From Escherichia coli (GTDB lineage Bacteria > Pseudomonadota > Gammaproteobacteria > Enterobacterales > Enterobacteriaceae): a stretch of DNA of 959 nucleotides. Of this stretch, positions 1 through 959 are shown one piece after another. Numbering within the stretch: the stretch's first letter is position 1; each line of letters starts with the position of its first letter. Under the pieces are notes generated by a model. It did no database searches. It was not told where the DNA came from and saw only the letters and a program-made list of their open reading frames with translations. Where the stretch lies: NCBI RefSeq assembly GCF_003334815.1, contig NZ_QOWO01000112.1; one strand, 5' to 3'. A program made the translations under genes and the position numbers.

Positions 1-93
1 TGACCGCAGCGGCGAAGCGTACCCTTGCATCCCTGCCAGCCCGGCTAAGATGGAGGCACGGCACAGCCCGCACACGACACGGCGGCCACATAA

Positions 94-126
94 CTGAAAA
101 ACCACAAGGCCATGCCCTGCATGGCC
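94..126 (-). terminator. Second hairpin with T-rich tail: possible backup terminator or RNA 3'-end structure (tentative)
   Basis: Seen in sequence: plus-strand GGCCATG (108..114) / CCCTG loop / CATGGCC (120..126) form a perfect 7-bp stem. On the minus strand it is followed by TTGTGGTTTTTCAG (complement of 94..107). The T-run is separated from the stem by GTGG, so it is weaker than a canonical terminator. No U-tract follows it on the plus strand (GGGTAAAGCGG). Confidence 0.35.
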
Positions 127-181
127 GGGTAAAGCGGAGCCGGCGGCGACGTCCTTTGTGCTCTGTCCGGGGACCGGCAGG

Positions 182-205
182 AAAAAGGCGGGGATTTACC
201 CCGCC
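182..205 (-). terminator. Rho-independent (intrinsic) transcription terminator for the minus-strand CDS
   Basis: Seen in sequence: plus-strand GGCGGGG (187..193) / ATTTA loop (194..198) / CCCCGCC (199..205) form a perfect 7-bp stem with 6 of 7 G:C pairs. On the minus strand the hairpin is followed immediately by TTTTT (complement of A-run 182..186). It starts 7 nt downstream of the TGA stop. On the plus strand the hairpin is followed by AGTGTCATCATTTCC, which is not a clean U-tract, so it is mainly unidirectional. Confidence 0.72.
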
Positions 206-212
206 AGTGTCA

Positions 213-959
213 TCATTTCCGGATTTTTGCCAGGGCATCCGCCATGCTGCGGATTTCGTTCCGGGCTTCCCGGACCACCTCCCGCAGAACACCACGGTCA
301 AACCAGCGGCGGGGCGGTTCATCCGGTATACGCAGCACATCCCAGGCCAGCCAACTGGACAGGATATGTTCAATACAATCGCTGACCAGATACATTTCCA
401 CCGCCGAAAAACGTGCGCCCCGGTTCAGGATGGCGTCGAGCACCACGGGCAGGTTTTCGTCGTCCTCATCGAGCCAGCAGGGGTGATCGCTCTCCTTCAC
501 GACCAGGCGAAAGCGGCGCGTCTGGCGGGTCAGTAACGTCTGACCGGTGGTGGTCAGCGCCGCCCGGATACGCCGCGTATCTTCTGCCACCTGGTAACTG
601 ACACAGCGTACTGCATCGCGTACCGCATCAAGAACTGCCCTGATTTCGTCCTCTGCCAGCCACTCACCGGCATACGGGAAAGACACCTGCGTTCCGTCTG
701 CCGGAAGTACCGGCAGCGACTGCCACTGACTGCCGGACAGTACAAGTTCCGCCCCGGTTCCGGTCAGTTTGTGAATGGCGGAGGCCAGGAGCGGCGGCAG
801 TGCGCCGCCGTGACGGTTGATAAGTAACGTCGCCAGCCGGGGCGCATCCAGCAGAACATAAATGCTGATCCAGCCCGGATGGTTCGGGTTCCGCTGGTCA
901 ACATCCGTCTCTTCCGGCCAGCCCTGCGCCAGCAGCAGGTTGCGGGCGTGACGACAAAT
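213..959 (-). CDS. Hypothetical protein of unknown family, C-terminal 248 aa; 5' end of the gene lies beyond the window edge
   Basis: Seen in sequence: the minus-strand frame is open without any stop from 959 down to TGA at 215..213 (248 codons; an open run this long is improbable by chance even at this GC content). Codon first positions are G-enriched and codons are typical enterobacterial (CTG, GCG, CCG, CAG, GAA, GAT, CGT, CGC). The translation is protein-like (...[29 protein letters not shown]...[17 protein letters not shown]...[33 protein letters not shown]...[25 protein letters not shown]), and an intrinsic terminator follows 7 nt after the stop. The GTG at 686..684 used by the ORF track is preceded by only a weak SD-like GGAA and the frame and codon pattern continue unchanged upstream, so the true start is probably outside the window. 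Product family not recognised. Confidence 0.8.

Follow-up and report, generated by a model that had tools for sequence, protein, structure and literature searches.

The window, by which we mean the whole stretch of 959 nucleotides analysed here, matches the E. coli plasmid pE2863-1 with 100% identity over its full length, and its sequence was matched in 3,693 of 5,426 complete E. coli genomes, nearly all of these matches being plasmid-borne. On pE2863-1 all genes around the window lie on the minus strand, in the order methylase, hypothetical protein, DUF1380 protein, yffB-like gene, a gap of 417 nt, an antirestriction protein of the ArdB/KlcA type and, further along, ssb, psiB, psiA and ardA. 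The plasmid pESBL-EA11 (hereafter pESBL) has the same gene order with oriT (nikA) beyond ardA, and the order also holds for the F plasmid, in which no ardA is annotated and oriT (traM) is found on the far side of psiB. The window comes from the leading region of a conjugative plasmid of the IncI/IncF type. Conjugative transfer has a 5'-to-3' polarity and the leading region enters first; with this polarity, the gene order and the side of oriT in pESBL and F identify the plus strand of the window as the transferred (T) strand, and as the template for all of these leading-region genes.

Positions 1-212 are the first 212 nt of the 417-nt intergenic region upstream of ardB/klcA. An earlier note on this DNA, made from the letters alone, had described two tandem hairpins here, downstream of a gene on the minus strand. 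That gene is real: its frame stops at 213-215 and runs off the end of the window, and the annotations of pE2863-1, pESBL and F give its product as a hypothetical protein of 258 aa. In the methylase operon it comes last. Thousands of other plasmids besides F and pESBL conserve the protein, yet it has no Pfam or NCBIfam match; an NCBIfam search with the antirestriction protein on the other side of the gap gave no useful result. The features of the window are as follows.

1-69, plus strand: right (3') arm of a long stem-loop, the non-template strand in the hairpin; the stem ends with GCCC (66-69)
70-107, plus strand: module linker between the main stem and hairpin 2, moderately conserved, with a variable A/C run at 96-104
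108-126, either strand: hairpin 2, GGCCATGC (108-115) pairing with GCATGGCC (119-126), 8 bp with a 3-nt loop, inside the repeat
131-157, plus strand: 3'-terminal motif of the module, AAAGC-GGAGC-CGGCG-GCGACGTCCTT, the whole stretch reading AAAGCGGAGCCGGCGGCGACGTCCTT
158-181, no strand: context-specific spacer between the terminator and the module, found only in the klcA context; homology between copies stops at 156-157
182-205, minus strand: hairpin 1, GGCGGGG (187-193) pairing with CCCCGCC (199-205), loop 194-198, U5 tract 186-182
213-959, minus strand: 3' part of the yffB-like gene (249 codons), stop codon TGA at 215-213, frame open to the window end

Both hairpins are present as the earlier note had them, two perfect 7-bp stems about 55 nt apart; reading hairpin 2 as 8 bp with a 3-nt loop describes the same structure as 7 bp with a 5-nt loop. 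They had also been said to be oriented for the minus strand, and a scan for terminator-like sites lists both on that strand, but since both stems are palindromic the orientation comes only from the flanking T runs. The scan returned three minus-strand sites, where shuffled sequences would give 0.8 +/- 1.1; hairpin 2 accounts for two of the three, in overlapping registers.

Hairpin 1 begins 7 nt past the yffB-like stop codon TGA and consists of seven G-C pairs around a 5-nt loop, after which the minus strand continues with an uninterrupted TTTTT (186-182). Its predicted energy as RNA is -16.1 kcal/mol (z -3.5, with 1 of 200 shuffles as good), and as DNA it has a z of -4.2, with none of 200 shuffles as good. 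It resembles known intrinsic terminators in its short all-G+C stem, its 5-nt loop, its uninterrupted U5 tract and its place right after a stop codon. By these sequence features hairpin 1 is an ordinary Rho-independent terminator of the upstream operon, the strong terminator that had been proposed, and transcripts of the yffB-like operon would end there. At the same position in F, pESBL, Salmonella and two Klebsiella copies, a hairpin is likewise preceded by a run of A on the plus strand. The Klebsiella-type copies have different stems at this position, the Entomohabitans copy has only a weak A run, and in the E. cloacae copy the A run is replaced by a T run that follows on the plus strand.

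Hairpin 2 is a different case. As RNA its predicted energy is -15.7 kcal/mol with a z of -1.7, and 10 of 200 shuffles do as well; as DNA its z is -2.9, equalled by 1 of 200 shuffles. After the stem the minus strand continues with TTGTGGTTTTTC (107-96), within a T-rich run that extends over 107-94. Compared with intrinsic terminators its stem is alike, whereas its U tract is interrupted and not conserved. It could nevertheless be one half of a tandem fail-safe arrangement in which the yffB-like transcript has both hairpins at its 3' end and hairpin 2 catches what reads through hairpin 1. Its energy as RNA and its passing of the loose minus-strand scan, with eight pairs and the tail TTGTGGTTTT, fit that idea, as do the tails of the E. 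coli/F/pESBL type, which have T at 3-5 of their first 8 bases. The tail of the window copy reads UUGUGGUUUUUC, with 4-5 U among its first 8 bases. Stopping read-through into a gene that is supposed to stay silent on established plasmids would also be biologically sensible. The larger setting of hairpin 2 argues against this reading, which we regard as doubtful.

That setting is a repeat. In pE2863-1, the region upstream of the antirestriction gene and the region upstream of ardA share 300 nt without gaps at 96% identity. With gaps allowed, the homology of the two copies covers L001 7803-8156 (L001 being the coordinates of the pE2863-1 leading-region stretch), which corresponds to window -197 to 156 and amounts to about 354 nt, ending in ...GCGACGTCCTT. 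Window 1-157 is the right part of this module, with hairpin 2 inside it; hairpin 1 and the 24 nt preceding it lie outside. The copy upstream of ardA stands behind a different gene, and it has hairpin 2 and lacks hairpin 1. Hairpin 2 is thus inherited with the module, and the suggestion that it forms part of a structured 3'-UTR of the upstream gene is probably wrong, as 1-157 belongs to the single-stranded DNA (ssDNA) promoter module of the next gene downstream. Both hairpins are real, yet they do not form a pair and differ in origin.

As single-stranded DNA, the plus strand of the whole gap has a folding energy of -106.5 kcal/mol (z -4.9), which no shuffle out of 100 equalled. The predicted fold is an imperfect stem-loop of 237 nt (L001 7833-8069), whose left arm and loop lie outside the window, the left arm continuing into the template of the antirestriction gene. 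The right arm holds a candidate -35 hexamer, TTGCAT (25-30), and a candidate -10 hexamer, TAAGAT (46-51), separated by N15, a spacer that is short for sigma-70. In the predicted structure the AAG of TAAGAT faces AAA of the left arm, which opens a 3-nt bubble between runs of 8 and 15 perfect pairs. The predicted transcription start lies some 7 nt beyond the -10 hexamer, close to L001 7844, and would give a leader of about 48 nt with a GGAGG Shine-Dalgarno sequence. The element stands in a leading region, upstream of a gene templated by the transferred strand, and its single strand is predicted to fold into a long stem-loop that rebuilds a -35/-10 pair, with the hexamers as a candidate assignment.

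Elements of this kind have been described and tested in F and pESBL, and in that respect the finding is already known. The study in PMC12672017 (cited as Wen et al. 2025, NAR) reports six operons induced in pESBL recipients; klcA and ardA are each preceded by one of two similar hairpins, which the study defines as class 2 ssDNA promoters, with starts determined by 5'-RACE. Induction is reported there within 15 min of mating, with transcription from the pESBL homologue seen by both 5'-RACE and RNA-seq, and the promoters are reported to be inactive once the DNA is double-stranded. The corresponding element of F, ssp2, lies between yffB and yfgB (ArdB); it physically stalls complementary-strand synthesis, with the stalled 3' end at the end of the stem, and the stall is resolved by UvrD, the delay prolonging early expression (Fraikin et al., 2026 preprint, bioRxiv 10.64898/2026.01.09.698686). 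According to this literature, host RNA polymerase starts at the pESBL and F hairpins in the recipient before the complementary strand is made, and so drives ardB/klcA (and ardA).

Sequence identity to these elements is high: 95.0% over 417 nt to the region upstream of klcA in pESBL, 92.4% over 355 nt to that upstream of ardA in pESBL, and 97.1% over 411 nt to ssp2 of F. The class 2 promoter of pESBL, which is the same as F ssp2, agrees with the window element in sequence, flanking genes, strand and the second copy upstream of ardA; nothing essential differs, and what we have is another plasmid's copy. Hairpins 1 and 2 are both found in F and in pESBL, with small changes in the loops. Judged by its sequence the module is a copy of the class 2 ssDNA promoter, or ssp2, already described, and with 95-97% identity to the pESBL and F elements the identification is secure. 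Its promoter function is carried over from those elements. On this basis the incoming T strand would fold, and the right arm would supply TTGCAT-N15-TAAGAT as the non-template strand for RNA polymerase. Window 94-205 is then very probably a junction, where the end of one leading-region operon meets the ssDNA promoter of the next.

The class 1 elements Frpo/ssi1-3 of F and ColIb-P9 (Masai and Arai 1997, as represented in the papers citing that work) follow the same principle as the window element, a long imperfect T-strand hairpin that lies upstream of leading-region genes with the T strand as their template, rebuilds -35/-10 for host RNA polymerase and is silent on duplex DNA, and they are reported to be required for early leading-gene expression in vivo. 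They have no alignable similarity to the window element, and hexamers and tail differ. Closer to it is Frpo' 4, given in Supplementary Table 2 of PMC11541004 (Samuel et al. 2024) as a computational candidate only. Frpo' 4 is a clear homologue of about 82-84% identity that shares the arms, TTGCAT...TAAGAT and the terminal motif and has a hairpin at the position of hairpin 2; the stem of that hairpin is GGCCCG/CGGGCC where the window has GGCCATGC/GCATGGCC, and no minus-strand T run follows. The accessible text of PMC12672017 and that of bioRxiv 10.64898/2026.01.09.698686 describe the large stem-loop and make no mention of the tail hairpin or the terminal motif.

The conservation of hairpin 2 was followed through two sets of relatives. 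A scan of one genome per species with the conserved right-arm pattern yielded 62 distinct class-2-like modules in Enterobacterales, and a metagenome scan anchored on either side of hairpin 2 added many more copies of the ssp2 subfamily. Counted over both sets, the segment that runs from the right arm to GCGGAGCC occurs in 123 copies and 56 distinct versions. Since MAFFT had put the Klebsiella-type stems one column out of register, stems were classified sequence by sequence and not by column covariation. Of the 56 versions, 51 have a perfect stem of 5 bp or more, and it ends 7-8 nt before GCGGAGCC, save in two singleton variants with a stem change (9-10 nt). Four stem types occur, namely GGCCATGC/GCATGGCC, GGCCCG/CGGGCC, GGCCCGG/CCGGGCC and the imperfect GGCCACGTC/GACGGGGCC. 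The common type comes with eight loop forms (CCC, CCT, ACC, TCC, CTC, TCT, CC and CT), while its stem is changed in four singletons only. Among these single-base stem variants, all singletons, one keeps a G-T pair on the plus strand and two keep a G-U pair on the minus strand, a split that carries no strand signal.

Energy alone puts hairpin 2 just marginally above chance. What makes it convincing is conservation, because a perfect stem is kept in 51 of 56 natural variants at a fixed spacing with the loop free to vary. This is the pattern that would be expected of a selected stem, although the compensatory switches may go back to as few as two or three independent events. The stem could instead be a functionless palindrome hitch-hiking in the module; most copies are more than 90% identical, so that part of the conservation reflects recent common descent, and some subfamilies do without hairpin 2. 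Against this, eight loop variants stand opposite four singleton stem changes, and three other stems pair at the same position and spacing, which makes hitch-hiking improbable. Other class-2-like subfamilies have unrelated small G+C hairpins just before the conserved GGAGC motif, or none; as some of them have no hairpin there, hairpin 2 appears from these sequences to be dispensable to the promoter type as such.

The T run behaves differently from the stem. GUGG breaks it up, and even near-identical copies differ in it, reading GGTTTTT, GGGTTTT, GGGGGTT or GGTGTTT; the tails of close copies include TTGTGGTTTTTC, TTGTGGGTTTTC, TTGTGGGGGTTC and TTGTGGTGTTTC. In diverged copies the T run is lost and the stem is kept, with tails such as TTGTGGTGATAA, TTATCGGTGAAA and TTTTGGGTGCCC. 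The features of a terminator are therefore not kept together in relatives, where the stem stays and, in diverged copies, the U tail becomes UUGUGGUGAUAA, UUAUCGGUGAAA or UGAGAGCU. The earlier note had held that a lack of conservation across 94-180 would speak against its interpretation. The opposite is seen, 94-157 being highly conserved, as part of the promoter module. A fail-safe pair thus keeps some plausibility for the plasmids at hand, but the travelling of hairpin 2 with the promoter module, including a copy behind a different gene with no hairpin 1, and the loss of its T tail in diverged copies weaken it considerably. Hairpin 2 may terminate weakly in this lineage; termination does not appear from the comparison to be the conserved property.

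The A/C run at 96-104 of the plus strand (GAAAAACCAC) also differs among near-identical copies (AAAAACC, AAAACCC, AAACCCC and AACCCCC) and behaves as a mutable homopolymer boundary.

A role as DNA on the incoming strand should be considered too. Hairpin 2 and its tail might nucleate the stem, limit invasion by SSB, position the stall or take part in priming. In keeping with this, the stem is conserved and the tail of an RNA terminator is not, hairpin 2 as DNA beats 199 of 200 shuffles, and it sits on the T strand 38 nt beyond the base (3') of the main promoter stem, the stem that stalls complementary-strand synthesis in F. Unrelated small G+C hairpins at the same place in other subfamilies point the same way. 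A further lead, and no more than that, is AAGCGG at 132-137, just after the hairpin, a hexamer which we take to be common to PriA (n') primosome assembly sites. It occurs in many subfamilies and reads ACGCGG, ATGCGG or AGGCGG in others, the first two of these replacements being found in close relatives and so weighing against the lead. Several subfamilies have no hairpin at all, the published stall maps to the main stem and not to the tail, and a fold of the whole region gives the tail no stable conserved partner. With these points on both sides, a role as DNA is possible and we put it forward tentatively.

Returning to the junction of operon end and promoter module, hairpin 2 would be a selected accessory hairpin of the promoter module and not the 3' UTR of the gene upstream, as we infer from its inheritance. 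Its most likely role would be insulation of the module. On duplex plasmid it could serve as a weak second terminator, stopping transcripts that have got past hairpin 1, and on the incoming single strand as a local fold keeping the tail from competing with the main stem. Hairpin 2 may act at the level of RNA or of DNA, and the evidence does not choose between the two.

Beyond hairpin 2, the module closes with its terminal motif, whose family consensus is GGAGC-N(1-11)-GCGACATCCTTAT. By reading, it is recognisable in about 45 of the 62 diverse class-2-like modules of Enterobacterales (46 of 62 with a strict regular expression), and it is kept even where everything between the motif and the right arm differs. 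Carriers beyond the window include modules L010, L013, L016, L019, L029, L045, L052 and L053. It is possible, though we would not consider it probable, that the tail of class 2 elements (108-157, hairpin 2 with GGAGC-N-GCGACATCCTTAT) is a separate functional domain that has so far escaped description. If so, it may set the pause or priming of the complementary strand on the incoming strand, or insulate the promoter from the upstream operon.

Three more specific ideas about this region were tried and rejected. Sequestration of the ardB/klcA Shine-Dalgarno sequence by the GCUCC of the tail in a read-through RNA, as opposed to an RNA begun at the promoter, is not borne out by partition-function folding, in which Shine-Dalgarno pairing is 0.05-0.35 with partners outside the tail. 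For the tail to close a helix with the 5' flank of the module, it would need a 7-bp complement (GATGTCG/CGACATC) that is found only in the L010-type subfamily and is absent from the window type. A small ORF at 45-122 (25 aa, with its ATG in the stem of hairpin 2) was also set aside, the ATG being missing from diverged copies. Read on the minus strand, the terminal motif resembles a Shine-Dalgarno sequence fused to an ATG (ATAAGGATGTCGC), and it resembles the real start of a methylase gene next to Erwinia-type modules. In five modules (L028, L102, L111, L161 and L172), arms of the ssp2 type are joined to a tail that ends like another subfamily (…ATAAAAGCGGAGCCGGCGACAGCCTTATCC), which by sequence suggests recombination between module types.

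The earlier note had also raised, as speculation, a small RNA in the 75-nt spacer. An RNA of the minus strand could end at hairpin 2, or an antisense RNA of the plus strand, similar to AS-pc01, could start from the right-arm promoter on duplex DNA and end at hairpin 1. In the gap the only Rfam match with E < 1 is a weak one of plus-strand 108-209 to AS-pc01 (RF02875), aligning three hairpins, and TTGCAT/TAAGAT could be read rightwards on duplex DNA. At 20.8 bits (E 0.27-0.51), where the gathering score is 79, this match is no better than chance and involves no sequence similarity; one other sub-threshold match, to Pseudomon-groES (18.4 bits, E 0.97), appeared when the window was scanned. The Rfam check that had been proposed thus gave no family at gathering score in the window, the whole gap or 12.5 kb of leading region, nor any STAXI match. 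No sigma-70-like promoter passed the scan on either strand of the window, in agreement with what had been concluded by eye. Neither hairpin has a U tract on the plus strand, and a 171-nt minus-strand RNA folds no better than shuffles (z -1.2). The published promoters are reported to be inactive on duplex DNA. We therefore regard a small RNA at this place as highly improbable.

What is added here to the published picture is that the second hairpin is assigned to the promoter module and not to the gene upstream. Thousands of plasmids of the IncF/IncI type carry the module with the same tail. Promoters of the ssDNA kind control how a plasmid establishes itself in its first minutes, among other things its anti-restriction, its SOS inhibition and when strand conversion takes place, and because of this control over early establishment the conserved tail is a reasonable target for mutational work on plasmid spread.

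Several further observations were made on the leading region of pE2863-1 and on the modules collected. A class 1 ssDNA promoter lies upstream of ssb (L001 6011-6341) and is 99.4% identical to Frpo3 of ColIb-P9, so that the elements of this plasmid number no fewer than one of class 1 and two of class 2; the ssb gene itself is annotated as frameshifted. Two further direct repeats are present in the same region, one of 137 nt at 98% identity (L001 31-167 and 6374-6510) and one of 40 nt at 88% identity (L001 267-306 and 6636-6675), the latter, CCTGCATTTCAGGCAGGCGTAAGCCTGCCAGGGTTTTCCG, containing a hairpin. Enterobacterial leading-region sequence near-identical to the window was also met in assemblies with Gram-positive labels, namely two contigs of Streptomyces morookaense (L011 and L012), a Collinsella MAG (L038) and a Lachnospiraceae MAG (L041), most likely through contamination or mis-binning. 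Finally, Izhakiella capsodis has two right-arm promoter cores 158 nt apart on the same strand (L014 2041-2078 and 2199-2236), which suggests compound or tandem modules.
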